In this document: piece by piece, positions 5,301 to 22,634 of the stretch | How the letters are laid out: the number at the start of each line of letters is the position of its first letter | Position numbering within the stretch: the first letter of the stretch is position 1 | Notes under the pieces: generated by a model | The model's database searches: none | What the model saw: only the letters and a program-made list of their open reading frames with translations | Told to the model about the DNA's origin: nothing | Position numbers and translations under genes: made by a program | Assembly: GCA_023701385.1 (NCBI GenBank) | Contig: JAMPXC010000010.1 | Span: 12,502-76,501 of the forward strand | Length of the DNA: 64,000 nucleotides | Reading direction: 5' to 3' | From: Pseudobdellovibrio sp. | Lineage (GTDB): Bacteria; Bdellovibrionota; Bdellovibrionia; Bdellovibrionales; Bdellovibrionaceae

Positions 5301-7429
5301 GCGCTACTGCTGCCTGCTGCAAAACTATAATAGCCAGATGAATAACTACTATCAAAGGCTGTCGAGTGAGTTCCAGTGGCCTGACCCTCGTTGAAGGCGA
5401 CTGCGCCATACTCGGTAGCCTGAGCGTAGTGGCCGATCGCGATGGAATGATCTGCCGTCGCATATCCACCGTGCATGGCAATTGATCCATAGCCTGAAGC
5501 GACCGGCGAATTCGCACCGTAAGCAAAACTTCCTTCACCAATACTTGCATCATCCCATTCAGTTGAGCCAGCGTAACCGCCGCGAAATGCCGCTTTCTTC
5601 GCATAGAAGAACATTCTTGTGCCCGCACCAGAAACACTGAGGTTATTTCCGACTCCCCACGCTCCGCCATTAACAAGTAAATCACCTTCGACATGAAGTT
5701 TTTGAATGGGATTACTTGTTCCGATGCCTACGTTGCCAGAGGTGTAATAAATATCACTTCCGGTTGTCGTCCACTGCGTCGGTGTTACAGATCCACTCGC
5801 TGCTGGAGTGTACCCCAACGCACCGGTCACATCACCTGCCGTGATTTGTGATCCACTAGTGACACGGCCTTTACTATCGACTGTGACCTTCGTGTAAGTG
5901 CCAGCGGTCACACCTGAGTTTGATAAAATAATTGTATTTGATGCCGCAGCAATTGTGGCGTCACCAGTAAAACTTGGTAATCGCGCAATCGCCAATGTTC
6001 CTGTCGCCGAGGCACTTCCTAAATCAATCGTTGAAGCTGTTGCTAATGTACCTAAGCCTAAGTTAGTACGTGCCGTTGCGATATTTGTTAAATCAGAAAG
6101 GTTATTTGCTTTCTGCACGTAAGTTCCACTGACCGAATTATCTGCCGGAACATAACCTAATACCTGCGCGATACTCGCCGCACTTGATGTGATTTTATTA
6201 CTAAAGCTCACGTAATCTACATTAGAAATTAGTCCTGCAGTTACAGCTCCCGTTGAAGCGAGCGGAATATTTAAAGTATGCACTCCGTTTGAAGTATTAA
6301 AATTCGGGGCGGTGCCCCCCGCCCCGATAGCAAATGACTGTGTGCCGCTGGTTGAGCCGTTGAAATTTGTAATACCCGCGCCAGATACGCCGAATGCTTG
6401 CCATGAGGTTCCGTTACAGTATTCGATATTACTTGCGTTGTATCTTAAAGTTCCCGCTAGAGCTGGTGCACATGTCGTGCTTTCAGTACCGATACGCACA
6501 CCGCCTGATACATCAAGCGCAGTCACCGGCGTAGTTATACCAATACCAACATTTCCTGAAGAGTAAGAAATCGCTGTTCCCGAAGTTATCCATTGCGACG
6601 AGGTCATCGCAGCAAATGAAGCCGCTACCGAATTTTGTAGACTTGTCACTGTCGACGATACTGAAAATACAGTTGAACTTACACTTGAAGCATAACTTGA
6701 AACTCCGGCCACAGTCGAAGACACTGTTGAAAGATCAGCTGTTACTGCAGAAACACTTGCTCCATCAGCCGGAGTATAACCAAGAGCGGTAATCACCGTC
6801 GATGATGTGACCGATCCCCCGCTTCCGCCAACAGCTACGCAAGAAAAACTAGAACCGTTGTAGTGAACAGCTTCACTCGCCGCACAAGTTGGAATCGCAC
6901 TTATTTGCACAAAAGCAATGTCAGTTTTTCCGTTCAGTGTTAACGAATCATTGGCATACATTGCGTAAGGTACCGCATTGATATTCATCGCTGGCAACGT
7001 TTGCCAACCGCTGCCGTCATGAAATTGCATGACAATTTTTCTGATATCTGTAGACGTCGGAGAATAACTTGCAGGACCACCGGTATCGCAAGATAAGCTT
7101 GGAGTGATATTCGAAAAAACTTGTTCAAATGTTGTTGCCGATGCCGGATAAGTTTTAACTCCTGAGCCCAATGAAAAAGAAATTAATCCGCTTGTGCTGG
7201 ACATATTCACTGAAGAATAAGTTTCCGAATAAAGAATACAGCTTCCCGCAGGATCTAGAATGGTAAATTTAAAATTCACACTTGAAGCTTCAAGCGGATA
7301 ACCATCGGGCTTAATAATTTTAGCTTGATACGTAGTGCGTGATGGACCTGCAAAGGCTGATGTCGCGTTTACAAAAATAAACACAAAAAACAAAATGACA
7401 TGAATCAGCCAGTTACGTGCGGTTTTCAC
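2342..7429 (-). CDS. MAT-type phage-tail-fibre-like trimeric adhesin 1, with YadA-like head repeats and C-terminal peptidase S74 chaperone
   Basis: Signal peptide, then N-domain RTTYQAKI...GWQTLPAMxINAVPYAMYA; many GNVGIGTxxP repeats; SxAxG beta-roll repeats (GSFAYG...SIALG); SDRRLK S74 motif, coiled coil and YLCxKDPSAPFC tail. Start re-assigned to GTG 7429; the ORF track opens at 7489. Confidence 0.88.
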   Translation of the reverse strand: MKTARNWLIHVILFFVFIFVNATSAFAGPSRTTYQAKIIKPDGYPLEASSVNFKFTILDPAGSCILYSETYSSVNMSSTSGLISFSLGSGVKTYPASATTFEQVFSNITPSLSCDTGGPASYSPTSTDIRKIVMQFHDGSGWQTLPAMNINAVPYAMYANDSLTLNGKTDIAFVQISAIPTCAASEAVHYNGSSFSCVAVGGSGGSVTSSTVITALGYTPADGASVSAVTADLSTVSSTVAGVSSYASSVSSTVFSVSSTVTSLQNSVAASFAAMTSSQWITSGTAISYSSGNVGIGITTPVTALDVSGGVRIGTESTTCAPALAGTLRYNASNIEYCNGTSWQAFGVSGAGITNFNGSTSGTQSFAIGAGGTAPNFNTSNGVHTLNIPLASTGAVTAGLISNVDYVSFSNKITSSAASIAQVLGYVPADNSVSGTYVQKANNLSDLTNIATARTNLGLGTLATASTIDLGSASATGTLAIARLPSFTGDATIAAASNTIILSNSGVTAGTYTKVTVDSKGRVTSGSQITAGDVTGALGYTPAASGSVTPTQWTTTGSDIYYTSGNVGIGTSNPIQKLHVEGDLLVNGGAWGVGNNLSVSGAGTRMFFYAKKAAFRGGYAGSTEWDDASIGEGSFAYGANSPVASGYGSIAMHGGYATADHSIAIGHYAQATEYGAVAFNEGQATGTHSTAFDSSYSSGYYSFAAGSSSASGSHSIALGSNADTDADYAVAIGAGSLAYSYRSTTLGTYNTIITANKNSWIATDPLLVVGNGMSSGSRSNAMIILKNGNVGIGIIAPTAKLHLVSGTASVAPLKFTSGTLLSSPQSGTMEYDGTNFYLTDSTNTRRAIATGSSAGTIDNASNINSSGNISMTPNNGANSVIVSSTVASTSSNTGALIVNGGLGVAGNINAGGTIQGVSVTATSGMISPYIAGSIVSGGSLTLDSTTHATKGNILLAPNGGNVGIGTSSPGSLLHVYGNNAGARMEEASGKYALVHTDSGGNLVLEADEGNVNASSRIAFEVDNSEKMRIDSSGNVGIGTTSPAHLLALKGSTSFTTQTGQFQIANSSSLMALNVGVGTDTGGNKVTWLQSTETGVSNIRNLTLQAYGGNVGIATTTPSAKLHIEGSGGTIADGLVIRSTTGGNQYGFYSSLNDFHLRSVTAGTDVLTTTYAGNVGIGTTTPGAKLHLGAFNDNHLLLTSSNNDYGWKIDTRDNLGGNVPLTISRRTAGADTAVMTIRNESGNVGLGTSSPTARLEINSGANTDAAILATSNENNKLIVKSWDTQPTIVQTFGLVHSFQGDENNGFLKFYRGGSTSGGFLALGTTGLERIRVDTSGNVGIGTSSPAYTLHTAGNIVADRPLSHPYGLGVRTDSTWTVWKRQFAFFSNDGSQLGGLTAHGSTGNTLDRISIGQGLDTSGANGTEWLTVKSNGNVGIGTPTPAYNIDVTGSALIRGGGAHSVAAPSYGGTFFSFDGGTNTAGLWSVNNTTSNFAFYTKTGNTDAGTERMRITDTGRVGIGTPTPGYTLDVSGDLRITGTPYRNGGDVGWTVPSDRRLKDITSDYNRGLREITNLNMIKFRYKENNPKGINSTEEYTGVIAQEVQKQIPEAVKEDKDGFLSLNTTPIFWAMINAIKDLYKEFLGLQTEQVNQARQIASLNQKLEDENVKLKEENAAQSKELQSVKFYLCTKDPSAPFCK
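5763..6532. repeat. Copy 1 of a ~770 bp direct repeat shared by fibre genes 1 and 3
   Basis: Colinear with 16651-17420 at a constant offset of 10888; 6075-6217 is identical to 16963-17105 over 143 bp, checked by eye. Confidence 0.92.
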
Positions 7430-7436
7430 AGGTAAC

Positions 7437-7444
7437 TTATCGGT
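7437..7444 (-). promoter_or_regulatory. sigma28/FliA-like -10 box (ACCGATAA) of fibre gene 1
   Basis: 7/8 match to GCCGATAA, exactly 7 nt before in-frame GTG 7429; no SD; -35 is weak (TCGAG). Confidence 0.6.
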
Positions 7445-7661
7445 ATTATTCTGTTTTTTCTCGAATGCTCCGGTGCAATTCAATGACATTGAGAGCGCAG
7501 CTGAATTGTCTTAATGTTTCAATTTAAGACAAATGAGTTCAAACACTTATAAAAATCAGCAATATGTTGCCGAATACCGCGACTGTAAACCGAAAACACG
7601 ATGACGAAATGAATTACTGACAGCCAGTTGGGTTGTAGCGCGGCAGAAATAACAACTGCAC

Positions 7662-10600
7662 TTAGTTACAAAAAGGTGCTGAAGTATTTTGGTTACACAG
7701 GTAGGCTTTGATAGTTTCGTTTTGCTGCTTAAGCTGTAAATTTTCAGATTCAAGTTTTTCTGTTTTTGTTTTTAGCGCTTGTACTTCAGCACTGTCAGCT
7801 TTTGAAGCTATCTGTCGGTCTTGTTTTTCAAAACGATTCACGACGAACGCATACAATTCTTTAACCGCCTGGATAACTGGAGCCACTAAAACAGCGTAAT
7901 CTACTTTTTTGTAACCTGTATTTTTATCGTTCATCACAGCTGTCGGAAATACTTTTTCCACATCTTGCGCTATGACCCCGATATCGTGACGGCCATGGCT
8001 TAATGATTTTTCATTCCAATCAAATTCTACACCTTTTAAAGAATTAATTTTTTCTAAAGCATACGGAATTGGTTTAACATTTTCTTTTAACCGGGCATCA
8101 GATGAACAGTTCGTACCACCTGCACCATTTCCCAAAGTACAATCAGTTGAGCCTTGTACACGTAAGTTACCTACGACATGAAGTTTTTCATTCGGAGTTG
8201 TTATACCGATACCGACATAACCGGCCGAGCTAATATGTAGTGATTCAGGCACTGCTCCACTCCAAGTCACTGTTTGGTTCGCTGTTCCTATAGCTGTATT
8301 TCCTGTAAAAAACGAGATTGTTCCATCGCCTAATAAGATTCTGGACGCACCTCTTGCTCCGAGATATTTGTATCCAGTACCATCTGAAGCAATCACTGCA
8401 CCACCCACCAGATTCGTTAATCCTTGCCCCTGGCCGGTGTCGATGGTCATTCCTGAACCGGTGGTTCCGTTGATTGAATTTTCTACTTTAAAGCCCGGTA
8501 GAACATTCGGATTTGCCGTCGTATTATCGATATGCAATTTTGCAGTGGCACTGACCGTTGCAATACCTACATTACCATTGTACTTAATAGATAGCGCGGT
8601 GGTTTCTGTACCGGAGTCTTTAGCAACAAAATCGTAAGAGACATTACCCCAAGCTTGATGGTTTCTTTTGAGTGCAAGATTCCAGGTATCGGGGTGAGTT
8701 GAAAATCCCCAACGCTGAAGAGTGTTCACTCCTGTATTTTCATCTGTTACACCGCAAGTTCCAGTCGTGTCGCCGGAAGGACAGTTATATTTAGCCATAA
8801 CATCAAGACCTTTTTCGGCAGCTGCAAATCCATAAACTGAAACACGTGCCGAAGGATTTGTCGTTCCGACTCCGAAGTTACCATTCGCTGTCATTCTTGC
8901 TCTTTCTGTCACGACACCATTAGCATCATTGGTTTTGAACAACAGAGGTTCTGTGCCATCGTCTCCCCAGATAAGTGTGGCATATTTTTCGTTGCTGCCA
9001 TTATTTTCTAAACCGATATAAAAGTTGTCGCTATCGTCTCCCATCATCACGCCCATAGTTCGACTTACCGACCAACCAGTTACCACACCTGAAAAAGGTG
9101 AACCGATCTGCAATTTGGTCACGGGAGTATTCGTTCCGATACCGACATTTCCACTCGGAGCAATTTTTAATTTAGAGATTCCCCAAGCTGTGCCATCGGT
9201 TGATTGGTAAAAATCTAAACTTCCGGGGTTCGTCGAATCGCCATTACCTTGATGAATCAGCCAGTGATTACCACCACCGATAGTTCCACTGGTTGAACTA
9301 AAACGAATTGTCGGTTTATCACCTTGTAGAGTGACTGCGCCGTAAGAGCCGTTCCAATCACCGAGCACGTTTAATTTACCATTCGGAGAAACTGTTCCAA
9401 TTCCAACATTACCATTCGAGGTAATTCGCATTTGTTCAGTGAGTGTTGTTCCTGAAGCCGTTGTAAATTCGATAAAACTATTATGAACACTGGAGCTTTG
9501 ATTACTTTCAGCTATAACCCTAATGTGGCCAACCTCATTAAAAGATGTGCCATCATAGGCGCCGCCGATAAGATTCAGCAACGGATCTCCGGCTTGCACC
9601 GCTGTCGGCGCGCCACTGTTACCGCGGGCCGCTCTTCCCCAAATTTGTGCCGCATTTCCACCGACTGAATAATTGTCAATGACAAGATTTCTTGGCATAG
9701 CTGTCGATTCATCAACGATGTGTAATTTTGCCGAAGGACTCTGCGTGCCGATACCGACGTTGCCTGAGCCCTTGATGATCATTTTTGTTGAAACAGCGCC
9801 AGCCCCTGCATTAAAAAATTCTAAATCACCGGAATAGGTTGCGTGATTATGATCGGTAACTCGAGTGGCTACTCCACCCGCTTCTTGAAAAGCCGAAGCG
9901 CCAACACCAGTCGTATCAGATCTCATCGAAAAAACAATCGAAGCTCCCGTAGTCTGCGCATTATAAAGGGCTGTGTTGGTGCTTCCAGAATCTTCACGCA
10001 CGACAAGCCTTCTTTGAGGTGCGTTTGTGCCGATACCGACATTGCCTGTAGCCCGATTAATAGAAAAGTTAGTCGCTAAATATGCTCCCGCATCGTTGTA
10101 TGAATTTAAATAAAAATTTGATCCCGCATTACTTCCTGATTCAGATGCATCGTTTACACCCATAATCCATCGTGAAACACCACTCGTCATAAAAGACACT
10201 TCTCGATGCGTTCCTGCAGCACCATCAATACCAAGAGCATTTTCATTGGCGCCACCTTTATCAAAGACCGTTAAATCAGCTGTTGGATTTGCTGTGCCTA
10301 TACCGACGTTACCATTATTCTGTACTCTGAAAAGAGTATTTATTGTTGCTCCGCTATCAGGAGTTGTTCTGACCCAAAATGCTGCATTTGAAGATGGAGC
10401 ACCTTCTGATGTTTGAATAATTGCACCATATGGCGTTGTAGAGTTTGCAGTAATTGCATAGCCTGTTCCAATATTACTTCCGATCGATAGAACACTATTA
10501 GGAGTATTCGTTCCGATACCCACGTATCCGCTATTCGGTGCCAATAAGATATTTCCCTTATTTGCGTGAGTTGTCGAATCAAGAACTAGTGATCCGCCTG

Positions 10601-12692
10601 AAACAATTGATCCTGCAATATACGGCGAAATCATTCCTGATGTCGCGGTGACCGATACCCCTTGGATATTAGCCGAAGTTGTGATTGACCCGCTGGTATT
10701 GACATTACCGGCTACTCCTAAACCACCCCTAACAATCAACGCACCGGTGTCTGATGACGTAGAAGCGGTCGTCGAAGAGACAATTACTGATCCCGTTGGT
10801 GTGATCGTCATATTTCCAGAAGAATTAATATTTGAGGCGTTATCAAGCGTTCCTGCACTTGAACCGGTGGCAATCGCTCGGCGGGTGTTCGAGCCATCTG
10901 TTAAATAGAAAAAACTTCCGTCATACTCCATTGTTCCTGATTGCGGTGATGTCAGTAATGTTCCAGACGTGAACTTGAACGAAGCCATACTGGATGTGCC
11001 TGGTGCTAAATGTAATTTCGCTGAAGGAGACGATGTGCCAATACCGACATTACCATTCGGGTTAATAGTCAGATCTATTCCCCCAGTTGTGAAAATAAGT
11101 TTATTTACTGACGGAGAATAAATAGCCGGGCCATTTGAAAAAGAGTAACCCGTTGCTTGCGCCGATCCGTTCAATTGAAACGGATAATCTGAATACACGG
11201 TATAACCGTCAATTTCGAAACCTGATCCCAAATTGATAACGCCGCTGCCATCAATCCAAAGACGGTCTGTGCCTGAGGTCGCAATCGAAATTTGGTCAGC
11301 ACCTGAAGAATAAATTCCGGTATTTGTATCTCCGTTAAACGTATAAGCCGGAGCATTTGCATTGCCCGCGATAGCCTGCAGTTGTCCTGTCATTGCTACC
11401 GAGCCATCTTTTTTAAAATCACCTAATGAGGTGCCGCTTGCGGCCGGAGTATAACCCAATGCCGCAATGATCGCCGCACTTGTTGTTGATTGATTAATCC
11501 AAGATAAATTTCCTAAACCGTCAGTTGATAAAACTTGGCCTGCGGTGCCACTTGTAGTCGGTAAATTTAAAATGTAATTGGCACTTAGACTTGTGGGTGC
11601 TTGTAACCGAATATTAAAACTTGTGCTTGGTCTATAGATATCGGTGTAATTTATTTTTGCCGCGTTGGCATAAAGATCGTTAACTGTGACGTTGCCTGAA
11701 GAATTTCTTTTTACAATCGTATCAACTGTTGACGACGAAGTTGCTGCTAACGTGTCATCGACACTTGATGAAATTTGTGCAGCAGTTTTTCCGCCGACAT
11801 TAACCACACTGTTTGATGAAATTGAACCGCTCACATCACCCGATAAATTCGTTGAAGAAATTTGGGCGGCCACAGCACTGGCACTGACCGGGGCATAACC
11901 TAAAGTATTTGCAATCTGCGTAGCACTTGCAGAAAGTTTGGCCTTAAATTCGGCGTAATCAAGCGAAGTTAAATACCCGTCACTTGACATCGATGCCACA
12001 TTAATTGAAATCACCGGAGAACTTGCCGTTCCTGCCGTGGTCAAAACTGTTCCGCTTGTGGTTACACTGGTGATACCGCCACCGCCTCCACTAATAGCCA
12101 CACAACTAAAACTTACGCCATTAAAAGTAATCGCTTGTGTTGCCGGATTACAATTTAAAGCGGCTAATGTTGCATTTTCAACAAATGCCGTATCAGGCTT
12201 ACCGTTAAGTGTTTGTGCATCGTTTGATTTATTGGCGTACATTGCATACGGAACCGCATTGATCGCCATGGCGGGTAAAGTTTGCCAACCGCTGCCATCG
12301 TTAAACTGCATCACAATTTTACGCGTATCATTTGGGCCAGGATTATAAGCGCCCGGAGTTTGGCAGTTAAACAACGGCACTGAATTATCAAAAATTTGCG
12401 CAAATGTTTGCGACGTGCCACTGACCGGAAAAGAGCGAGTTCCGTTTCCTAAAGCAAAAGAAATTAAACCGCTACCACCTGACATATTAACGCCAGTGTA
12501 ATCTTCAACATAAAGAACACAGCTTCCAACAGAATCTAAAACTGTGAAACGGAAATTAACACTCGCCGCTTCAAGTGGATACCCATCAGGCTTAACGATT
12601 TTGGCCTGGTAGGTCGTTCTTCCGTTCATAGCAAACACTGTGGCCGCGAAGAAAACAGTGCTCATAATAATAAGAAGAAAAAAACTACGCAT
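7662..12692 (-). CDS. MAT-type phage-tail-fibre-like adhesin 2 with S74 chaperone
   Basis: Same N-domain; GNVGIGT repeats; CSSDARLKEN S74 motif; YLCNQNTSAPFC tail. ATG 12692 is preferred over TTG 12698. Confidence 0.88.
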   Translation of the reverse strand: MRSFFLLIIMSTVFFAATVFAMNGRTTYQAKIVKPDGYPLEAASVNFRFTVLDSVGSCVLYVEDYTGVNMSGGSGLISFALGNGTRSFPVSGTSQTFAQIFDNSVPLFNCQTPGAYNPGPNDTRKIVMQFNDGSGWQTLPAMAINAVPYAMYANKSNDAQTLNGKPDTAFVENATLAALNCNPATQAITFNGVSFSCVAISGGGGGITSVTTSGTVLTTAGTASSPVISINVASMSSDGYLTSLDYAEFKAKLSASATQIANTLGYAPVSASAVAAQISSTNLSGDVSGSISSNSVVNVGGKTAAQISSSVDDTLAATSSSTVDTIVKRNSSGNVTVNDLYANAAKINYTDIYRPSTSFNIRLQAPTSLSANYILNLPTTSGTAGQVLSTDGLGNLSWINQSTTSAAIIAALGYTPAASGTSLGDFKKDGSVAMTGQLQAIAGNANAPAYTFNGDTNTGIYSSGADQISIATSGTDRLWIDGSGVINLGSGFEIDGYTVYSDYPFQLNGSAQATGYSFSNGPAIYSPSVNKLIFTTGGIDLTINPNGNVGIGTSSPSAKLHLAPGTSSMASFKFTSGTLLTSPQSGTMEYDGSFFYLTDGSNTRRAIATGSSAGTLDNASNINSSGNMTITPTGSVIVSSTTASTSSDTGALIVRGGLGVAGNVNTSGSITTSANIQGVSVTATSGMISPYIAGSIVSGGSLVLDSTTHANKGNILLAPNSGYVGIGTNTPNSVLSIGSNIGTGYAITANSTTPYGAIIQTSEGAPSSNAAFWVRTTPDSGATINTLFRVQNNGNVGIGTANPTADLTVFDKGGANENALGIDGAAGTHREVSFMTSGVSRWIMGVNDASESGSNAGSNFYLNSYNDAGAYLATNFSINRATGNVGIGTNAPQRRLVVREDSGSTNTALYNAQTTGASIVFSMRSDTTGVGASAFQEAGGVATRVTDHNHATYSGDLEFFNAGAGAVSTKMIIKGSGNVGIGTQSPSAKLHIVDESTAMPRNLVIDNYSVGGNAAQIWGRAARGNSGAPTAVQAGDPLLNLIGGAYDGTSFNEVGHIRVIAESNQSSSVHNSFIEFTTASGTTLTEQMRITSNGNVGIGTVSPNGKLNVLGDWNGSYGAVTLQGDKPTIRFSSTSGTIGGGNHWLIHQGNGDSTNPGSLDFYQSTDGTAWGISKLKIAPSGNVGIGTNTPVTKLQIGSPFSGVVTGWSVSRTMGVMMGDDSDNFYIGLENNGSNEKYATLIWGDDGTEPLLFKTNDANGVVTERARMTANGNFGVGTTNPSARVSVYGFAAAEKGLDVMAKYNCPSGDTTGTCGVTDENTGVNTLQRWGFSTHPDTWNLALKRNHQAWGNVSYDFVAKDSGTETTALSIKYNGNVGIATVSATAKLHIDNTTANPNVLPGFKVENSINGTTGSGMTIDTGQGQGLTNLVGGAVIASDGTGYKYLGARGASRILLGDGTISFFTGNTAIGTANQTVTWSGAVPESLHISSAGYVGIGITTPNEKLHVVGNLRVQGSTDCTLGNGAGGTNCSSDARLKENVKPIPYALEKINSLKGVEFDWNEKSLSHGRHDIGVIAQDVEKVFPTAVMNDKNTGYKKVDYAVLVAPVIQAVKELYAFVVNRFEKQDRQIASKADSAEVQALKTKTEKLESENLQLKQQNETIKAYLCNQNTSAPFCN

Positions 12693-12699
12693 AAACAAC

Positions 12700-12707
12700 T
12701 CATCGGT
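12700..12707 (-). promoter_or_regulatory. sigma28-like -10 box (ACCGATGA) of fibre gene 2
   Basis: 7 nt before ATG 12692; TAGA lies 16 nt upstream; no SD. Confidence 0.5.
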
Positions 12708-12735
12708 TAAATATATAAATTGATCTATTCCGGAG

Positions 12736-12751
12736 TACGCTCCGGAGCGTA
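12736..12751. repeat. Perfect 16-bp palindrome TACGCTCCGGAGCGTA between fibre genes 3 and 2
   Basis: Self-complementary by inspection; it overlaps an alternative stem TCCGGAG-TACG-CTCCGGA. Confidence 0.85.
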
Positions 12752-12758
12752 AAAAGTC

Positions 12759-15700
12759 TTACTTGCTATTCAGTGCTTTTTCAATTTTCTCAAGACGAGA
12801 CTTTATGGCTTCATTCTCTTGTTCAAGACTTTGGATCTTTCGCTCTTTAGCTGCATTCTCAGTTTCTAGCTGCTGAACCTTAGCCTCGATACTTGCGATC
12901 TGTCTGTCTTGAGAAACATTTTGCTCTTTTTCTTTGACCACAAGGTTATACAATTCTTTAACTGCCTGGATAATCGGGGCCACTAAAATAGCATAATCCA
13001 CTTTTTTATAACCCGTATTTTTATCGTTCATCACCGCTGTCGGAAAAACTTTTTCTACATCTTGCGCGATCACACCGATATCATGTCGGCCATAGCTTAA
13101 TGATTTTTCATTCCAATCAAACTCAACACCTTTTAAAGAATTAATTTTTTCTAGAGCATATGGAATTGGTTTAATATTTTCTTTTAATCGCGCATCAGAT
13201 GAACAGTTCGTACCACCTGCACCATTTCCCAAAGTACAATCGGTTGAACCTTGCACACGTAAATTACCCACAACATGAAGTTTCTCAGATGGTGTCACCG
13301 TTCCTAGACCCATGCTTCCGGAACTTTTGATGATCACGGTGTCGGTACCCGCAGCGTTGGTCATATAGAAATCATAAAACTGATCAATTCGTGTACGAAA
13401 TTGTCCAGCAGCATCTGTTGTTCTAAACGTGTTGGTAGCATCATCACCTTTAACATCCAGTTTTGAACCAGGAGTTATCATACCAATACCGACGTTTCCA
13501 GTTGCAGTTCCGGCAATGAAGGCCCACTGCGTGTTACCTGCCGGATTCACAAACTGAATTGTTCCATAAGGAGAACCTTGTGAATTTCCTTTAATGCGAA
13601 TCGCTCCGTCAGTGGCTCCGCCAGTATTGGTATCGCGCGCTTCGATAGTTCCTGCTACTTCGAATAGACGATCAGGATACTGTGTTCCAACACCGACGTT
13701 ACCACCAAAAGGTTGCAACGATAAATTTCTATACGTGCCACTATCTGCCGAACTAAGCCCCCAGACATTTTCATTTGTCCAACCGATCGCTAAATAATCT
13801 CCGTCGGTTGATTGAGAATTTCTAAAATAGGTATTGGCACCGGTTCCATTTGATATCAAGGTATTTGAATTAGAAACATCAAGTTTTGCAGCGGGAGTGG
13901 TTGTTCCTATTCCAACGCCACCCGAATTTAAAACTGTCATAAGATATTTCGTGCCACCGTTAGCTCTGAAACTAAAACCTGCATTTGTGCCCGTATTAGG
14001 GTTGTCGGCATCAAAATAAAAGTTTCCATCTTGGTTATAAGTTATGGTCCCGACACTACCACTGGCATTTTCAGTGTCTTCAAAAGCGATATACGGATAC
14101 GGATCTTTAATATGTAACTTACGTGCTGGACTAGCCGTTCCGATTCCGACATTACCGTCTGCACGAATGGCCATGACAGGAGCTACACCCTGAAAACCAA
14201 AATCTAATCTGTTCTGATTTGAATTGTTACCAATATAAGTAAAAGCAATGTCAGCAGCATTATAGGTTGTACTTATGTCATGCCCTAATTTTATATAATT
14301 TGATGAGTTTGTCGGTTGATTTGGCTGTACAAAAAGGCCATTGACTAAGCCTGAGCCCGTGCCGTTGTTTTGAATATGAAGAGGAACCGTTGGAGAAGTT
14401 GTTCCGATACCGACGCTTCCGCTGCTGACCAAAAGATTGTTATTAACCATGAGTTCGGCCGTAGCAACGTACACACTTGCACTCGCAGCACCAGGATCAC
14501 TCACGCCAAAGTTTAATGTGCTTGTCCAGCTAGAACTAGCATCCGTATCAACAGAAAAGAAATTTCCAACACCGGTAAAAACCGGAACATACACATAAAC
14601 ATCAAAAGCTGTGGCTGCACATCCGGCAGCATTACTCACAATTTTAACTTGTTGGATCATTTGCGATTGTCCGTAACGGTTAAAAACCGCCGAAGCACAA
14701 AAACCATTGGCGTCAACTGACGTGGCATTGCTTGTTCGTATTCTAACTTCAGACCATCCCATCTGAGGCATTTGAGCATTAAAACCTTGCCCGCCCTCAA
14801 AGCGAATAACAATATTACGCCCTTGCTGAGGTGCCGTCCACGTACCCACTTTAATCCATTGAGCCGTTGACGACGAATCACCTAAAGTCGGATTAGCAAC
14901 TCCGCCTCGAATGATCATAGACCCATTGACATCAAGCTTTGCAGCCGGAGTTGTTGTGCCGATACCGATGTTACCGGAGCCACTTTGATAAAAACCTTGG
15001 GTACCCGTGCCAGTCAGCATCGAATACGTAATATTGTTCGATGCATCGGCATTGATCGTGAAGCCGTTGGTGACACCCGTGATCCCGGCCAAGAAAATCG
15101 AAGTTGTGGTTGCCGCAGGGCCAACAACTTGCAGTTTGTAACCAGGCGCTGTCGTTCCAATACCCACGTTGCCGTTATCTTGGATACGCACTTTCTCACT
15201 CATAGTCCCGCTATATCGCGTACCAAATGAAAGATGCCCTTCGTTGGCTGTGCCCGAGTTAATAAAATCTATCTGAGCTCCGCCACCTGTGTACGAGCCG
15301 TTGTCAAAACGAATACCTGCACCGCGCGCGCCGATCACACTGCTGTTGTTGCGAAGAACTAAAGTTTGTTCGCCCGAGCTGTAAGCCGTACCGGTGTTAC
15401 CACCGACAACTTCCAGCGGGCCACCGGGAGTAGCTGTTCCGATACCGACGTTACCGCCATTCGGTGCAAGAAAAATATTTCCTTTTGTCGCGTGAGTTGT
15501 TGAATCTAAAGTTAAATTTCCAGAGGCGCTCACACTGCCCGCAATATACGGAGAAATTATTCCGCTTGTAGCAGTGACCGATACCCCTTGGATAGTACCG
15601 CCAGAGTTGATACTGCCGGCAACACCTAAACCGCCTTTAACAACAAGGGCCCCGGTTGATGAGTTTGTCGATGCGGTTGTCGCCGATACAACAACGCTTC

Positions 15701-18311
15701 CGGCTCCGCCGTTCGGATACATCGTGATATTTTCCGACGAATTTGAAATGAGTGAAGCATTGTCGTAAGTGCCAGCACCCGCAGTTGATGTGATTGTTCG
15801 GCGAGTGCTTGTGCCGTCGGTGAAATATAAATTATTTCCATCATACTCGAGAGCTCCAGTTTGCGGAGCTGTTAGCAATGTTCCAGAAGTTAATTTGAAT
15901 GAGGCTGTTGCACTTGTTCCTGATTTTAAATGTAAAACTGCAGATGGAGTTGTTAAACCGATACCAACGTTGCCGTCATTTTTTATAACCATGCGAGTTT
16001 GTTCAGTCGATGAACCGTCAGGCGAAGTTGTGAATTCAATTCGGCCAGGTATATCACTTACGCCAGTGGCGCCATCAACAACCATTTTTATACGCGCCGC
16101 TGTCTGATAGGCCGAACCATCATAGCCTCTAGCCCATAAAGTCGTGATCTCATCGTTTGACGAAACAAGCGTTGGTGCCGCTGTAGAACCACGGGATTTT
16201 TGAAAAATTTGATGAGCACCGAAACTATCACTCGAATTTCTTTCGACGGTCACAATTCCATTGCTACCGGCAATGTGAAGAGTTGTCGCCGGTGCACTTG
16301 TTCCGATCCCGACATTACCACCGGCAAGAATCGTCATTCGCGCCGCCGCATTTGTACCAAGAACAAGAGGAGCCGCAGTTGAAGTTCCCATGACTAATCC
16401 CGCACCAGAACCGTACATGGCCATAAGATTGTTGTTGGATAAACCAAAAGTTGTTCCCGCACGCGAACCACCGTAAATACCAAAATCTAAAAATTTTCCT
16501 GTCTCATTTGAAAATTGATCAAACGCGTACCCGGTCGCCGAATCAGTTTCAACTTTAGCATAAACGCCAGAACCTTTGACATGTAAAGGCTCTGAAGGAC
16601 TTGTTGTTCCAATTCCCACTTTGCCGGCATCATAATAAATATCACTTGCAGTTGTCGTCCACTGCGTCGGTGTTACAGATCCACTCGCTGCTGGAGTGTA
16701 ACCTAAAGCTGCTGTGACATCACCTGATACTAATTGTGCACCGCTAGTTACGCGGCCTTTGTCATCTACTGTGACTTTCGGGTAAGTACCCGCTGTTACG
16801 CCAGAGTTTGCTAAAATAATTGTATTTGACGCCGCAGCGATTGTGGCATCACCGATAAAACTTGGAAGTCGCGCGATGGCTAAGGTTCCTGTGGCCGAGG
16901 CACCGCCCAGATCAATGGTTGAAGCTGTTGCCAATGTGCCTAACCCTAAATTAGTTCTCGCTGTTGCGATATTTGTTAAATCAGAAAGGTTATTTGCTTT
17001 CTGCACGTAAGTTCCACTGACCGAATTATCTGCCGGAACATAACCTAATACCTGCGCGATACTCGCCGCACTTGATGTGATTTTATTACTAAAGCTCACG
17101 TAATCGGCGTTGGAAAGTAAACCCGCTGTCACAGTTCCTGTTGAAGCTAACGGAATATTTAAAGTATGCACTCCGTTTGAAGTATTAAAATTCGGGGCGG
17201 TGCCCCCCGCCCCAATGGCAAACGACTGTGTGCCGCTGGTTGAGCCGTTGAAATTTGTAATACCCGCGCCAGATACGCCGAATGCTTGCCATGAAGTGCC
17301 GTTACAGTATTCGATATTACTTGCGTTGTATCTTAATGTTCCCGCTAGAGCTGGTGCACATGTCGTGCTTTCAGTACCGATACGTACTCCGCCTGATACA
17401 TCAAGCGCAGTCACCGGCGTTGTAGTGCCGATGCCAACGTTACCCGTGTTATAAAAAATATTGGTTCCCGATGTCGTCCACTGTGAACTTGTTATCGTCG
17501 CAAAGCTTGCTGCTACTGAATTTTGTAAACTTGTGACTGAGCCTGATAGAGAGGCCACTGTTGATGAAACAGAAAATACTGTCGAAGAAACTGAAGAAAT
17601 ATTCGTCGTCGCTGAACTTAACGAATTTGACAGCGTGGTAAAGCTGACCGCATCTGCTGGCGTGTAGCCTAAAGCTGTTACGACACTTCCTGAAGTGACC
17701 CCGCCACCTACGGTTAAACAGCTGAAACTTACGCCGTTAAAATGAATGGCTTCATTAGCTTGGCAGTTAAGCGCTGCCAGCGTTGAGTATTCAACAAATG
17801 ATGTATCTGATTTTCCGTTAAGTTGAATTGAGTTTTCAGATTTACCCGCATACATCGAGTAAGGAACAGCATTGATCGTCATCGCCGGTAATGTTTGCCA
17901 ACCGGTTCCATCGTTAAACTGCATGACAATTTTTCGACCATCATTTGACGTTGGTAAATACACACCCATTGTCTGACATGAAAATGAAGGCGTTGAATTA
18001 TCAAAAATCGCAGCAAACGTAGCAGCAGTTCCACTGGTTGGAAATGATCTAACGCCGGCGCCCAATGCAAAGGCCACCACTCCGCCGCTGTCATACATAT
18101 TCACGGCCGTGTAGTCTTCAATATAAACTATGCAAGAAGCTGCGGGATCTAAGATCGTAAATCTGAAATTCACTGACGAAGATTGCAAAGGTTGGCCGTC
18201 GGGCTTAATAATTTTAGCTTGATAAGTTGTGCGAAATGGCGCCGCAAAAGCCAATGCTTTTGCTAAAAAAACCATAGCAAAAATAACGATTCGAATAAAC
18301 GTCCAGTTCAC
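12759..18311 (-). CDS. MAT-type phage-tail-fibre-like adhesin 3 with S74 chaperone
   Basis: GTG start; signal peptide; same N-domain; GNVGIGT repeats; a ~115 aa globular insert (QWIKVGTW...SSWTS); CSSDARLKEN S74 motif. Confidence 0.88.
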   Translation of the reverse strand: MNWTFIRIVIFAMVFLAKALAFAAPFRTTYQAKIIKPDGQPLQSSSVNFRFTILDPAASCIVYIEDYTAVNMYDSGGVVAFALGAGVRSFPTSGTAATFAAIFDNSTPSFSCQTMGVYLPTSNDGRKIVMQFNDGTGWQTLPAMTINAVPYSMYAGKSENSIQLNGKSDTSFVEYSTLAALNCQANEAIHFNGVSFSCLTVGGGVTSGSVVTALGYTPADAVSFTTLSNSLSSATTNISSVSSTVFSVSSTVASLSGSVTSLQNSVAASFATITSSQWTTSGTNIFYNTGNVGIGTTTPVTALDVSGGVRIGTESTTCAPALAGTLRYNASNIEYCNGTSWQAFGVSGAGITNFNGSTSGTQSFAIGAGGTAPNFNTSNGVHTLNIPLASTGTVTAGLLSNADYVSFSNKITSSAASIAQVLGYVPADNSVSGTYVQKANNLSDLTNIATARTNLGLGTLATASTIDLGGASATGTLAIARLPSFIGDATIAAASNTIILANSGVTAGTYPKVTVDDKGRVTSGAQLVSGDVTAALGYTPAASGSVTPTQWTTTASDIYYDAGKVGIGTTSPSEPLHVKGSGVYAKVETDSATGYAFDQFSNETGKFLDFGIYGGSRAGTTFGLSNNNLMAMYGSGAGLVMGTSTAAPLVLGTNAAARMTILAGGNVGIGTSAPATTLHIAGSNGIVTVERNSSDSFGAHQIFQKSRGSTAAPTLVSSNDEITTLWARGYDGSAYQTAARIKMVVDGATGVSDIPGRIEFTTSPDGSSTEQTRMVIKNDGNVGIGLTTPSAVLHLKSGTSATASFKLTSGTLLTAPQTGALEYDGNNLYFTDGTSTRRTITSTAGAGTYDNASLISNSSENITMYPNGGAGSVVVSATTASTNSSTGALVVKGGLGVAGSINSGGTIQGVSVTATSGIISPYIAGSVSASGNLTLDSTTHATKGNIFLAPNGGNVGIGTATPGGPLEVVGGNTGTAYSSGEQTLVLRNNSSVIGARGAGIRFDNGSYTGGGAQIDFINSGTANEGHLSFGTRYSGTMSEKVRIQDNGNVGIGTTAPGYKLQVVGPAATTTSIFLAGITGVTNGFTINADASNNITYSMLTGTGTQGFYQSGSGNIGIGTTTPAAKLDVNGSMIIRGGVANPTLGDSSSTAQWIKVGTWTAPQQGRNIVIRFEGGQGFNAQMPQMGWSEVRIRTSNATSVDANGFCASAVFNRYGQSQMIQQVKIVSNAAGCAATAFDVYVYVPVFTGVGNFFSVDTDASSSWTSTLNFGVSDPGAASASVYVATAELMVNNNLLVSSGSVGIGTTSPTVPLHIQNNGTGSGLVNGLFVQPNQPTNSSNYIKLGHDISTTYNAADIAFTYIGNNSNQNRLDFGFQGVAPVMAIRADGNVGIGTASPARKLHIKDPYPYIAFEDTENASGSVGTITYNQDGNFYFDADNPNTGTNAGFSFRANGGTKYLMTVLNSGGVGIGTTTPAAKLDVSNSNTLISNGTGANTYFRNSQSTDGDYLAIGWTNENVWGLSSADSGTYRNLSLQPFGGNVGVGTQYPDRLFEVAGTIEARDTNTGGATDGAIRIKGNSQGSPYGTIQFVNPAGNTQWAFIAGTATGNVGIGMITPGSKLDVKGDDATNTFRTTDAAGQFRTRIDQFYDFYMTNAAGTDTVIIKSSGSMGLGTVTPSEKLHVVGNLRVQGSTDCTLGNGAGGTNCSSDARLKENIKPIPYALEKINSLKGVEFDWNEKSLSYGRHDIGVIAQDVEKVFPTAVMNDKNTGYKKVDYAILVAPIIQAVKELYNLVVKEKEQNVSQDRQIASIEAKVQQLETENAAKERKIQSLEQENEAIKSRLEKIEKALNSK
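16651..17420. repeat. Copy 2 of the ~770 bp direct repeat shared by fibre genes 1 and 3
   Basis: See 5763-6532. Confidence 0.92.
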
Positions 18312-18318
18312 ATATTTC

Positions 18319-18326
18319 TTATCGGT
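18319..18326 (-). promoter_or_regulatory. sigma28-like -10 box (ACCGATAA) of fibre gene 3
   Basis: 7 nt before GTG 18311; no SD. Confidence 0.6.
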
Positions 18327-18391
18327 TCAAAGTGAAGTTTTCACCACTGCTCCGGGGCACTTAAGCAAAAAAATTGTGTTTCAAAATGAGA

Positions 18392-21300
18392 TTAATGGCA
18401 TGAAAATGGCGTTGCACCGACTTGGCCTTGCATATGCTCTAAACTCCAAACTGAACCATTCCAGTAAAGAGTGGCTTGCACCGTACCTTGATTACTAGCA
18501 GTACCTACAAGAGCATTAGCAGCATCCCGTAAATTTGTTCCCCACCCACGCCATTCAATTTCTGCAATGTAGCCTGTCGCATTTAGTTTTCCTAAAGTCA
18601 TTCGGTAAGTTCCATTCCAAGTGGTATCATAACCATCAAACAAATAGCTTGCGTGTGGACCCGCTGCACAGCCCACAGTGTCTTTTAATCGCGGAGCAAT
18701 TCCACGCCACGTGTAAGTTTCATCTTGATGAGCATCGATGTATGTTGAAGTTAAAAATGCCGGCATCGAAACTGTTCTGGTTGTTCCATCAAATGTCAGA
18801 ACCAGTTGTCCGTAGTTTGGTTGTTTAATACCACCGTTCACTTGTAATTTTGAAGTTGGCGTTGTTACACCGATACCCACATTACCTGTTGTTGGAGCCA
18901 GCGCTACTTGATCGTACTGAACTTTCACCATATCAACATTTGATCCACCTGATTGGGCATTTGTACGTAAAACGATTTGATCATTCACATTATCAAAAAT
19001 TTCAATCACTAAACGACTGACTTCAGAATTCACATCGTGTTCACCAAAAATCGAACCCGCATCGGTGCTCGCAATCCCTGCTGTTCCTGATTGCGTGCTG
19101 GCGTTAAACATCATTCTGCCTGTTGGCACATTTACATCACCACCAGCCACTTCTAACCGTGTTGTAGGGTTTGATGTGCCGATACCGACTGAACCACTGT
19201 TTGCATTTAAAATTGTATTGTTACCAACTTTATTAATGTAGAGCGGACGTGTTCCATGTGATTGAATCCACGCATATTCGGCACTGGCTGCTGTATCATC
19301 AGTACCTAATAGTAAAGCCGCCACACCTCCGCCATTAATCGCAATAGTTCCACTTGTGTAAGACGATGGGCTTCCATTCGGACCGCGCACATCTAATTTA
19401 GTGACTGGAGAAGTTGTTCCAATACCAATGTTACCTGAAGGTTTAAAAGTCATCATCGTGGTACTGCTTGTACCCAGTGTTAAATCAGCATTTAAATAAT
19501 TGTAAACACCAAAACCATTTGTACTGCCACCATCACCAAAGCCAACATACCCAGTATCACTTCCGCCATGGCGAAACATCAAAAGTGGATGTGCATTTGC
19601 ATTCGTTGTTTCAAGCTTCATCACGGAATTCCAACCAGCCACACCACCCGTGGCTACGTGTAACGGTGCGGTTGGAGTTGAATTACCGATACCGACATTA
19701 CCATTCTGTGTAATGCGCAAGCGTTCTGTCGCATCAGCGGCAGAATCATTTGTGTAAATTCTAACATCAGCACCAAGCTGACTTACACCAGGTGCGCTGG
19801 TGACATAAGAAGAAATTCTGGCTCCGCGAATATAAGAACCATCACTGCTTAACCCACGAAATCCGATATGACCGATCGTATCGCCATTGATGACAGGTGT
19901 ACTGGCTCCACGATCTTTTTGTAAGTAAATATCAGGCGATGACGGGGAAGAAACTGATCGTGTTAAAGTTAAAGCGGCCACCGAACCCTTAATTTCTAAA
20001 TCTGTAGCCGGTGAAGTCGTCCCGATTCCCACTTTACCATCACCTTTAATAATCATTTTTGTTGAGATCAATGGAGACGAAGCCACAGCTTCAAATGTGC
20101 CACTTGGCGCGTCAGGCGATGCGTACGTATCGAAAACTATATTCCCCGCAGCCATACGGATGCGATCAGGCCCTGAAGTATTATCAGAATCATTGCCTTT
20201 GAAAAGCAACAACTCCGAACTTTCCGTCGGAGCATAAACACGTTCGCCGATGTAAGTGTGGTTGTAAGATCCCGCCCCATCGCCGGTAGTTCCTCTGAAG
20301 GCGATGTAATTCGAATCAGAATTACCGATGCGCATGTTACCTAAGACATCTAATTTTTCACCCGGTGTAGCTGTGCCCACACCAAGGCTTCCGCTGGTTG
20401 TCAGATTTCCGTTCGCTGTGAGGTTACCTTGCACTGACATCGGACTTGAAACAACCACTGACCCTGCCGGATTTAAAGTTAAATTACTTGTTGAATTAAT
20501 TTGTGAAGTGTTATCAATCGAACCTTGTGAAGAACCCGTCGCAATAATGCGGCGTTGATTAGCGCCATCAGTAAGATAAAAATTAGAACCGTCATATTCC
20601 ATTGTTCCTGATTGCGGTGAAGTCAGTAAAGTTCCTGAGGTAAATTTTAATGAGGCTGTGGCTGATGTTCCCGCAGCTAAAGATAATAGAGCTGTTGGAC
20701 GAAGACCGAGACCAAACATCGCCCCGTTCATCTCTAAAGTATCGTCACCCGACAGAATAAAACGCGCATCAAAGTCGGTACTGCTGTCATTTGCAAAATC
20801 AATGTAAGGGCTACCGGCATTATCATATTCGCGCAGCTCAATGAAAGCGTTACCATCATTACCCATGGAGACAGAGCCATTATTCGCAGCCCCTGCTCGA
20901 ACTGTCCCAAGCACATCAAGAGCATGGACTGGATTAGATACGCCGATACCGACATCTCCCCCACTATAAAAAATGTCTGTTCCGTTTGTTGTCCACTGTG
21001 TGGCACTTGTCGCATTTGCCGGAGTATAACCTAACGTCGCGATGATTGCCGCACTGGTAGCCTGCTGTTTATTATTAAATGTATTCCAATCACTTGCTGA
21101 TAAATAACCATTTGTAGCCGACGTTGCTTGTGAAATCGAAAGTGTTGGCGTAGCGCCACCTGTTGATGACAGCGGTGCTGTCGCACTGACACTCGTCACG
21201 CTTCCCGTAGATGGACTAATCCATGATAAACTTCCAGAGCCATCTGTTGATAGGACTTGGCCAGATGTTCCACTGGTGGTTGGTAAATTTAAAGTATAAT

Positions 21301-22420
21301 TGGCCGCCAAACTTGTTGGCGCCTGCAAACGAATATTAAAGCTTGTGCTAGGTTTATAGATATCAACATAATTCACTTTTGCGGCGTTCGCGTAAATATC
21401 ATTAACCGTGATATTTCCTGAAGAGTTTCTTTTTACGATCGTGTCCACCGTCGCAGAAGTTGTTGCGGCTAATGTTTCATCAACGCTTGTTGACAATTGT
21501 GCCGCTGTTTTACCACCAACACTTTGAACAACGTTTGCCGAAACAGTTCCGCTCACATCACCTGATAGTTGCGACGCTTGAATTTGTGAATTAACCGCAG
21601 TTCCGCTGACCGGTGCATAACCTAATGTGTTTATAATCTGCGTGCTGCTCGCAGAAAGTTTTGATTTGAACTCGGCGTAATCAACTGATGTCAAATAACC
21701 ATCACTCGACATTGATGCGACATTAATTGAAATCACCGGCGCACTCGCAGTTCCGGCGGTTGTAAGTACAGTTCCGCTGGTGGTCACACTTGAAATACCG
21801 CTGCTGGATACACCCACAGCGATACAACTAAAATTCGCGCCATTAAATTTAATCGCCTCGTTGGCTTGGCAATTCAATGTCGCTAAAGTTGAATATTCAA
21901 CAAATGAAGTATCTGCTTTTCCATTGAGAGATTGTGAGTTTTGCGCTTTTGCAGAATACATCGCATAAGGCACAGAGTTAATAGCCATCGCTGGCAGCGT
22001 TTGCCAACCATTACCTTCGTTAAACTGCATCACGATTTTTCTATTATCAGTTGAAATTGGATTATACACACCCGGTGCTTGGCACACAAATGATGGTATC
22101 GAGTTATCAAAGACTGAAGCAAACGTCACCGGGCCACTAGCAGGATATGTTCTTGTTCCCATCCCTAAACTAAACGAAGTGAAACCACCACTTCCGATCA
22201 TATTCACGGCAGCATAATCTTCTATATATAGAACGCAGGATGAAGATGGATCTAAAACCGTAAACCGAAAATTAACACTGACTGATTCAAGTGGATATCC
22301 ATCGGGTTTATAGATTTTAGCTTGATAGGTTGTCCGCCCGTTGATTGCAAATGCAGATGTAGAAAGCAATAGTATGCTTCCAAGCGCGAAATAATAAACG
22401 TGCCTCAACCACTTATTCAC
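18392..22420 (-). CDS. MAT-type fibre adhesin 4, no S74 chaperone, unique C-terminal tip domain
   Basis: Same N-domain and GNVGIGT repeats. No SDxRLK motif; it ends in ~140 aa of unique sequence (...WSLEHMQGQVGATPFSCH). Start re-assigned to GTG 22420; the ORF track opens at 22513. Confidence 0.85.
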   Translation of the reverse strand: MNKWLRHVYYFALGSILLLSTSAFAINGRTTYQAKIYKPDGYPLESVSVNFRFTVLDPSSSCVLYIEDYAAVNMIGSGGFTSFSLGMGTRTYPASGPVTFASVFDNSIPSFVCQAPGVYNPISTDNRKIVMQFNEGNGWQTLPAMAINSVPYAMYSAKAQNSQSLNGKADTSFVEYSTLATLNCQANEAIKFNGANFSCIAVGVSSSGISSVTTSGTVLTTAGTASAPVISINVASMSSDGYLTSVDYAEFKSKLSASSTQIINTLGYAPVSGTAVNSQIQASQLSGDVSGTVSANVVQSVGGKTAAQLSTSVDETLAATTSATVDTIVKRNSSGNITVNDIYANAAKVNYVDIYKPSTSFNIRLQAPTSLAANYTLNLPTTSGTSGQVLSTDGSGSLSWISPSTGSVTSVSATAPLSSTGGATPTLSISQATSATNGYLSASDWNTFNNKQQATSAAIIATLGYTPANATSATQWTTNGTDIFYSGGDVGIGVSNPVHALDVLGTVRAGAANNGSVSMGNDGNAFIELREYDNAGSPYIDFANDSSTDFDARFILSGDDTLEMNGAMFGLGLRPTALLSLAAGTSATASLKFTSGTLLTSPQSGTMEYDGSNFYLTDGANQRRIIATGSSQGSIDNTSQINSTSNLTLNPAGSVVVSSPMSVQGNLTANGNLTTSGSLGVGTATPGEKLDVLGNMRIGNSDSNYIAFRGTTGDGAGSYNHTYIGERVYAPTESSELLLFKGNDSDNTSGPDRIRMAAGNIVFDTYASPDAPSGTFEAVASSPLISTKMIIKGDGKVGIGTTSPATDLEIKGSVAALTLTRSVSSPSSPDIYLQKDRGASTPVINGDTIGHIGFRGLSSDGSYIRGARISSYVTSAPGVSQLGADVRIYTNDSAADATERLRITQNGNVGIGNSTPTAPLHVATGGVAGWNSVMKLETTNANAHPLLMFRHGGSDTGYVGFGDGGSTNGFGVYNYLNADLTLGTSSTTMMTFKPSGNIGIGTTSPVTKLDVRGPNGSPSSYTSGTIAINGGGVAALLLGTDDTAASAEYAWIQSHGTRPLYINKVGNNTILNANSGSVGIGTSNPTTRLEVAGGDVNVPTGRMMFNASTQSGTAGIASTDAGSIFGEHDVNSEVSRLVIEIFDNVNDQIVLRTNAQSGGSNVDMVKVQYDQVALAPTTGNVGIGVTTPTSKLQVNGGIKQPNYGQLVLTFDGTTRTVSMPAFLTSTYIDAHQDETYTWRGIAPRLKDTVGCAAGPHASYLFDGYDTTWNGTYRMTLGKLNATGYIAEIEWRGWGTNLRDAANALVGTASNQGTVQATLYWNGSVWSLEHMQGQVGATPFSCH

Positions 22421-22427
22421 ATCATAC

Positions 22428-22454
22428 TTATCGGCGTTAATTGCAGAAAATTTA
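22428..22454 (-). promoter_or_regulatory. Consensus sigma28/FliA promoter TAAA-N15-GCCGATAA
   Basis: Minus strand reads TAAA ttttctgcaattaac GCCGATAA gtatgat GTG: a perfect match to the enterobacterial sigma28 consensus including spacing. Confidence 0.8.
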
Positions 22455-22634
22455 AACCGGATCTGCTGTGGTCTTGTTTTTAAAGCAACTTTAACAGCTG
22501 TAGAGCGACTCATTGTGAGAATCTAACAACAAATTTAATTTGCGAATTAGCGCAGTAGGCGTCTTAGTGTCAAAACCCTAGACGCACTTTTTACTTGGGT
22601 GAACAGCTGAATGGCTTCAACGCTATCTCAGCTG

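Follow-up and report, generated by a model that had tools for sequence, protein, structure and literature searches.

We analyzed a 64,000-nucleotide (nt) stretch of the genome of a Pseudobdellovibrio species (hereafter, the window; GenBank assembly GCA_023701385.1, contig JAMPXC010000010.1, positions 12,502 to 76,501), in which four large fiber-adhesin genes lie in tandem on the minus strand. Our subject is the interval directly ahead of each gene, where a -10 box of the sigma-28 (FliA) type stands at a fixed, short distance from the start codon. The genes and their promoter elements, in window coordinates, are as follows.

2342..7429, minus strand: fiber gene 1 coding sequence, 1695 amino acids (aa); GTG start at 7429, the predicted transcription start (+1)
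7437..7443, minus strand: gene 1 sigma-28 -10 element CCGATAA (a before); spacer gttacct
7662..12692, minus strand: fiber gene 2 coding sequence, 1676 aa; ATG start at 12692, the predicted +1
12700..12706, minus strand: gene 2 sigma-28 -10 element CCGATGA (a before); spacer gttgttt
12759..18311, minus strand: fiber gene 3 coding sequence, 1850 aa; GTG start at 18311, the predicted +1
18319..18325, minus strand: gene 3 sigma-28 -10 element CCGATAA (a before), with a weak -35; spacer gaaatat
18392..22420, minus strand: fiber gene 4 coding sequence, 1342 aa; GTG start at 22420, the predicted +1
22428..22435, minus strand: gene 4 sigma-28 -10 element GCCGATAA (CCGATAA at 22434-22428, G before); spacer gtatgat
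22451..22455, minus strand: gene 4 -35 element TTAAA, matching the family consensus TTAA(g), 16 nt ahead of CCGATAA

Promoter and start-codon layout at the four fiber genes

In all four tandem genes, the box (g/a)CCGAT(A/G)A is followed by exactly 7 nt and then by GTG or ATG. The four 7-nt spacers are unrelated in sequence; every one ends in T, with a purine next. The words GGAG, GAGG, and AGGA are absent from the 16 nt ahead of each of the four starts. The gene 4 promoter is a perfect TTAAA-N16-CCGATAA, equivalent to TAAA-N15-GCCGATAA. This is the form of the Escherichia coli and Salmonella class 3 flagellar sigma-28 promoters (fliC, tar, and motA type), which gene 4 matches perfectly; in the enterobacteria, such promoters give flagellar and chemotaxis mRNAs that have a leader and contain a Shine-Dalgarno (SD) sequence. 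Across the window, CCGATRA occurs at 28 sites, compared with 12.8 expected from shuffled sequence, and 0/100 shuffles reached 28. Among these 28 sites, only those of the four fiber genes have a start codon 7 nt after the box.

From each of the four starts, translation yields a K/R n-region, a hydrophobic core, an AFA-type cleavage site, and then a conserved (R)TTYQAKI motif. The longer open reading frames (ORFs) listed for genes 1 and 4 begin at ATG 7489 and ATG 22513 and would place 20 and 31 additional residues, respectively, before the signal peptide. The ORF listed for gene 2 begins at a TTG two codons too early, and gene 3 has an in-frame stop just five codons upstream of its GTG at 18311. 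An earlier interpretation of this DNA (the sequence-only reading) had described a box exactly 7 nt before each start with varied spacers and no SD, normal-length signal peptides unlike the gene 1 and gene 4 extensions, and a perfect sigma-28 consensus at gene 4 with -35 elements of unequal quality elsewhere; the minus-strand sequence agrees on each point.

Identity of the encoded proteins

The four genes encode prey-recognition fibers of the mosaic adhesive trimer (MAT) type, in a Pseudobdellovibrio, a relative of Bdellovibrio exovorus. Pfam searches of the four proteins placed a Peptidase_S74 intramolecular chaperone at the C termini of genes 1 to 3 (E values of 8e-11 to 3e-19) and YadA_head repeats in gene 1. 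Gene 4 had no Peptidase_S74 chaperone and no Pfam match of any kind in that search; its tip domain (window 18392-18830) is uncharacterized. The beta-helix stretch of gene 3 resembles Bd2133 (PDB entry 8OND, E = 3.9e-7). Over the N-terminal 200 residues, the four proteins share 58 to 66% identity, and a profile of the fiber N-terminal region retrieved 19 paralogs in a Bdellovibrio genome (G009) and matches in 29/40 other genera sampled from the family.

These features parallel the MAT family of Bdellovibrio bacteriovorus (Caulton et al. 2024, PMC10769870), whose members share a signal peptide, a conserved N-terminal domain, a long fiber, and variable tips. The chaperone ends of three of the four genes and the beta-helix match to Bd2133 extend the likeness, with trimers predicted here. 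The conserved N-terminal domain carries (R)TTYQAKI here and the homologous motif LTYQGRI in strain HD100. The two sets differ in length (1342 to 1850 aa here versus about 1000 aa) and in the four-gene tandem array found here. The word "promoter" does not occur in the MAT paper (PMC10769870).

Gene 1 (6304-6327) and gene 3 (17192-17215) contain, on the minus strand, the same GC-rich hairpin, TCGGGGCGGGGGGCACCGCCCCGA, and its tail is also identical. Judged from the shared hairpin and tail, this fits a recent gene conversion between the two paralogs.

Genome-wide enrichment and conservation of the layout

The assembly that holds the window comprises 3.18 Mb in 96 contigs (40% GC). We computed a genome-wide histogram of the distance from CCGATAA to the start of ORFs of at least 100 aa, with 419 permuted 7-mers of the same letters as the control. 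The histogram peaked at 7 nt (22 cases), with 0 to 5 cases at other distances. The permuted 7-mers averaged 0.6 cases at 7 nt and never exceeded 6 there; the highest count that any of them reached, at whatever distance, was 9. The enrichment at this spacing that the sequence-only reading implied was thus found. SD sequences are in general use in this genome, with GGAG and AGGAG peaking 5 to 8 nt before starts; a regular-expression search for the 3' end of 16S rRNA (the anti-SD tail) returned no match in the 96 contigs.

A cognate sigma factor is encoded: a protein on contig C44 (2944-3615, minus strand, outside the window) matches the FliA_WhiG model TIGR02479 at 274 bits, above the cutoff of 189.6. 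This fliA gene lies directly upstream of a further fiber paralog (N-terminal domain at C44:1671-2237, minus strand), which has its own CCGACAA-N7-GTG. The box-N7-start layout is also seen at genes outside the fiber family, those for FliL, a subtilase, an SLT transglycosylase, a PilZ protein, an HD-domain (HD_5) protein, and a C92 amidase, a set that fits an attack-phase and flagellar regulon.

Within this genome, 20/22 fiber paralogs have a CCGAyAA-type box 6 to 7 nt before the start, and 17 of these 20 start with GTG. At least five relatives (Pseudobdellovibrio sp. HCB154, "Bdellovibrio sp. qaytius," LC001, LC033, and other metagenome-assembled genomes) supplied 77 homologous loci. A box with at most two mismatches lies 6 to 8 nt before the start in 76/77 loci. 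With at most one mismatch, it is present in 64/77, at 7 nt in 56 and at 6 nt in 8; the starts are GTG in 57 and ATG in 7. The spacer, said by the earlier interpretation to be free in sequence and fixed in length, behaves in this way throughout the 22 paralogs and 77 homologous loci.

A box-first count, which presupposes no start codon, was made on 75 homologous boxes. The triplet 7 nt past the box was GTG (n = 50) or ATG (n = 6) in 56/75 and lay in frame in 59/75. The upstream profile of the 75 boxes gives TTAA(g)-N16-CCGATAA, equal to the B. bacteriovorus consensus. SD-like 4-mers were found at 0/75 loci, and in 61/75 homologs no other in-frame start lies upstream; the frame stays open upstream for a median of 10 codons. 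In orthologs of gene 4 (L001 and L002) and of gene 3 (L016 and L020), the -35 region, the box, and the GTG are kept while the spacer varies. Other genera have the same layout with ATG; in the Bdellovibrio genome G009 it is present in at least 11/19 paralogs.

Beyond sigma-28, sigma-70-type extended -10 boxes (TGnTAnnnT) are enriched 6 and 7 nt before SD-less starts (39 and 36 cases, respectively, versus a background of about 13). This suggests that leaderless mRNAs may form a general minority class in this genome.

Mapped transcription start sites in B. bacteriovorus HD100

Karunker et al. (2013, PMC3627812) mapped 140 attack-phase transcription start sites (TSSs) in B. bacteriovorus HD100 by tobacco acid pyrophosphatase (TAP)-differential 5'-end sequencing. 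They reported a FliA-like consensus, TTAAG-N16-CCGATA, for 92/140 TSSs, with the assignment to FliA being consensus based and not genetic. We reanalyzed Table S2 of that study and checked it against the HD100 genome sequence (G041; exact promoter match at the published coordinates). Among 86 promoters, the box was separated from the TSS by 7 nt in 65 cases, by 6 nt in 14, and by 8 nt in 3. Transcription began with A in 55 and with G in 24, and the -1 base was T in 39 and C in 33.

Twenty-five HD100 TSSs coincide exactly with an annotated gene start, and a FliA site accompanies 21 of them. ATG stands at all 20 of these TSSs that were inspected, and the products of eight of the genes have a signal peptide with LTYQGRI after it (Bd0705, Bd0884, Bd1130, Bd1334, Bd1712, Bd2133, Bd2582, and Bd3266). 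A further 28/140 TSSs fall inside annotated ORFs, 20 of them in frame and 12 of those 20 exactly on an ATG or GTG. The 12 include the fiber gene Bd0704, the GTG cases Bd1283 and Bd1936, and also Bd0551, Bd1355, and Bd3548; the annotated starts of these 12 genes are probably too far upstream. Approximately 37/140 HD100 attack-phase TSSs are therefore leaderless (25 exact plus 12 that can be reannotated), and nine of these belong to fiber genes. In all nine, the TSS is on the A of the ATG, which opens a signal peptide followed by LTYQGRI or LNYQG. The characterized MAT proteins Bd1334 and Bd2133 are among them, and in the tandem fiber pair Bd0704/Bd0705 each gene has a TSS of its own.

Table S2 also marks the variant CCGATGA as a FliA site, at Bd0367 and Bd3766. 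Bd2088, flagged there as having no FliA site, carries CCGATAA-N7-ATG.

The HD100 FliA promoters (PMC3627812) are thus alike to those described here in the TTAAG-N16-CCGATA consensus, in the 7-nt distance from box to TSS, and in gene class, since the "cell wall surface anchor family" of that study corresponds to the MAT fibers. They differ in that HD100 belongs to another genus and its fiber starts are ATG, compared with nearly all GTG here, where the TSSs are predicted.

Each fiber gene as a probable leaderless sigma-28 unit

We consider it very likely, from the combined analysis, that each fiber gene is its own leaderless sigma-28 unit with +1 on the start codon. Because the box ends 7 nt before the start, with a pyrimidine at -1 and a purine next, transcription is predicted to begin with the start codon itself. 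The sigma-28 holoenzyme would recognize TTAA(g)-N16-CCGATAA ahead of each fiber gene and initiate 8 nt past the box, at the purine that opens the start codon. Such an mRNA would have neither a 5' leader nor an SD, and the ribosome with initiator tRNA would bind directly to its 5'-terminal GUG (genes 1, 3, and 4) or AUG (gene 2). A fiber ORF carried on read-through RNA would be poorly translated for want of an SD, so that each fiber's output would follow its own promoter.

As for the marks of a sigma-28 promoter, all four genes have the -10 element, gene 4 alone has a full -35 element, and the cognate sigma factor is encoded in the genome. The earlier proposal that +1 coincides with the start codon gains support from HD100, through both the predominant 7-nt spacing (65/86) and the TSSs on the ATG of nine homologous fiber genes. 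We infer that the TSS position in Pseudobdellovibrio is the same as in these HD100 homologs, that GUG-leaderless translation is efficient, and that the fibers are timed to attack phase.

Several observations weigh against this interpretation. The -35 elements of genes 1 to 3 are weak, matching TTAAG-N16-CCGATA at 2 to 3 of 5 positions, and a good match exists at gene 4 only. The 6-nt (14/86) and 8-nt (3/86) spacings in HD100 allow for a 1-nt leader or a 1-nt truncation. Paralogs and orthologs share ancestry, such that the locus counts given above are not independent events. In the gap between genes 4 and 3, the window terminator scan found no convincing intrinsic terminator, which bears on read-through. 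The remaining points concern the start codon. In E. coli, leaderless activity with a 5'-terminal GUG is below 10% of that with AUG (cited in PMC4633059), and the mapped leaderless starts of HD100 are nearly all AUG. Apart from three GUG candidates (Bd1283, Bd1936, and Bd3241), the family thus offers no direct precedent for efficient leaderless translation from GUG.

Operon structure and intergenic features

The promoter interpretation can be set against a long operon or upstream promoters, with SD-less internal translation, for instance at A/U-rich, unstructured starts or via ribosomal protein S1, and with boxes that are inherited and little active at genes 1 to 3. Two intergenic features bear on this alternative.

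7556..7573, minus strand: terminator-like hairpin with a U-run after it, in the gap from the gene 2 stop to the gene 1 promoter
12729..12746, minus strand: 7-bp GC-rich hairpin UCCGGAG-CGUA-CUCCGGA (z = -2.06), in the gap from the gene 3 stop to the gene 2 promoter

The second hairpin has no adjacent U-tract and is at best a weak terminator. The terminator scan of the window returned 26 sites, compared with 20.7 ± 4.8 in shuffled sequence, and thus no excess; the single plausible intergenic terminator was that at 7556-7573. An operon would accord with the weak hairpin between genes 3 and 2, the lack of a convincing terminator between genes 4 and 3, the short intergenic gaps (66 to 80 nt for two of them), and the poor -35 elements of genes 1 to 3. 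However, the box and its spacing are kept in approximately 100 diverged paralogs and orthologs, including single genes outside any tandem array. In HD100, the tandem genes Bd0704 and Bd0705 each have a primary TSS at their own ATG, and promoters with a poor -35 are still very active, as exemplified by Bd1130 with 9,304 5'-end reads. We therefore judge the operon explanation to be quite unlikely. The sequence-only reading had taken each adhesin to be its own unit rather than part of a 20-kb operon; individual promotion is supported, and read-through from one gene into the next may still occur, as a credible intergenic terminator was found in one gap only.

A CCGGAGC(A) motif recurs on the minus strand of the window at 7463-7470, 12741-12747, and 18348-18355. 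At genes 1 and 3, it precedes the -10 box by approximately 22 nt; ahead of gene 2, it is part of the hairpin. It reappears in some orthologs (L016, L010, and L023). The motif could be an operator or a terminator remnant. As a shared operator, CCGGAG(C) was rejected, there being no signal for it in the upstream profile of the 75 boxes.

The GUG start codon

SD-led starts in this genome are approximately 80% ATG, 14% GTG, and 6% TTG. Fiber family starts are about 85 to 90% GTG, with TTG at 0/64. The non-fiber genes with a sigma-28 box-N7 layout start with ATG in 12 cases and GTG in 5, and leaderless candidates with a sigma-70-type box use ATG in 77% of cases, much as SD-led genes do (80%). GTG as a general leaderless trait of this genome was accordingly rejected, since the non-fiber sigma-28 and sigma-70-type cases are mostly ATG. 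The GTG bias is a trait of the fiber family in the Pseudobdellovibrio lineage, because the non-fiber sigma-28 candidates, HD100, and the other genera are mostly or entirely ATG. Either this organism's ribosomes tolerate the bias or it keeps fiber output low. The published HD100 data offer no precedent for a near-universal GUG start. For leaderless initiation in mycobacteria, it is both necessary and sufficient that the mRNA begin with ATG or GTG; TTG and CTG do not serve (PMC4633059).

The start codon also bears on a second alternative, in which transcription starts as proposed but translation begins at a downstream codon, or the GUG transcripts are largely untranslated or regulatory. The poor performance of GUG as a leaderless initiator in E. 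coli (PMC4633059) and the ATG found at +1 in HD100 and the other genera sampled would be expected under this explanation. Transcription initiation alone, however, does not need a conserved TG, and the +1 triplet is GTG or ATG, in frame, at 56/75 boxes. Later starts would delete the charged n-region or most of the signal peptide. Moreover, TTG at 0/64 at +1, compared with approximately 6% of SD-led starts, fits the ATG/GTG-only rule of mycobacteria. Taken together, these points leave the downstream-translation explanation very unlikely.

A third alternative, that the true starts are the upstream ATGs at 7489 and 22513 with ordinary leaders and the box inside coding sequence, has the longer ORFs listed for genes 1 and 4 in its favor but is extremely unlikely, given that neither ATG has an SD, that 20 to 31 residues would precede the signal peptide, that gene 3 has a stop 5 codons upstream, that 61/75 homologs have no upstream in-frame start (median open stretch, 10 codons), and that indels break the extension frame in L001, an ortholog of gene 4.

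Relation to known leaderless systems and implications

The leaderless mRNAs of mycobacteria (Shell et al. 2015, PMC4633059) offer a close parallel in initiation, with a 5'-terminal ATG or GTG as the sole initiation signal and a -10 element at a fixed short distance. They arise from promoters of the housekeeping sigma factor and account for about a quarter of all genes. The layout described here, in contrast, goes with an alternative sigma factor and is concentrated in a single adhesin family, and translation is predicted.

Novelty proved to be less than the sequence-only reading had supposed, as the layout was already visible in published HD100 TSS data. It went unremarked there: the word "leaderless" is absent from PMC3627812 and from a 2025 toolbox paper (PMC12622784), and our literature search found no explicit description of leaderless mRNAs in Bdellovibrio, only incidental co-occurrences of the terms. 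New here are the layout's occurrence in Pseudobdellovibrio, its family-wide scale, and a GUG start that is nearly universal. About one-fourth of the mapped HD100 attack-phase promoters, together with essentially the whole fiber family in two genera, would yield leaderless mRNAs from an alternative sigma factor, a combination that was not described in the literature that we searched. The near-fixed GUG in Pseudobdellovibrio also questions the E. coli-based view of the need for AUG and provides a tractable Gram-negative test system.

There are practical consequences as well. Gene finders extend or misplace these starts, and a box-N7-RTG rule would correct adhesin N termini and signal peptides family-wide. 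In the toolbox paper (PMC12622784), approximately 100 bp of such promoters, including Pbd1130, were fused to an added ribosome binding site, and the native leaderless state was not mentioned; Pbd1130 is the most-read leaderless TSS in HD100.

The suggestion in the sequence-only reading that unequal -35 quality could tune or desynchronize fiber display is speculative. A broader proposal, which we regard as unlikely, is that sigma-28 promoters fused to start codons constitute a dedicated attack-phase mode of expression in the Bdellovibrionaceae. Leaderless mRNAs, with GUG starts in Pseudobdellovibrio, might then be translated preferentially or exclusively by the ribosomes of the nongrowing predator, with each tandem fiber insulated from its neighbors and with -35 quality and the weak GUG setting, and possibly randomizing, which fiber is displayed. 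The presence of ribosome-associated protein Y (Bd0848) in the HD100 FliA regulon hints at special translation during attack phase.

Additional features of the window

Upstream of the gene 4 promoter, a block of approximately 45 nt (22480-22525, minus strand) is better conserved among three species than is the promoter spacer. Flanked by gene 4 and a divergent gene at 22662, it may have a regulatory role. Elsewhere, a full sigma-28-type promoter, TTTAA-N16-CCGATAA, is found at 41088-41094 (minus strand) with no start codon 7 nt downstream. It overlaps the ORF at 40502-41128, either within it or in antisense orientation, and could be the source of an antisense or small RNA.

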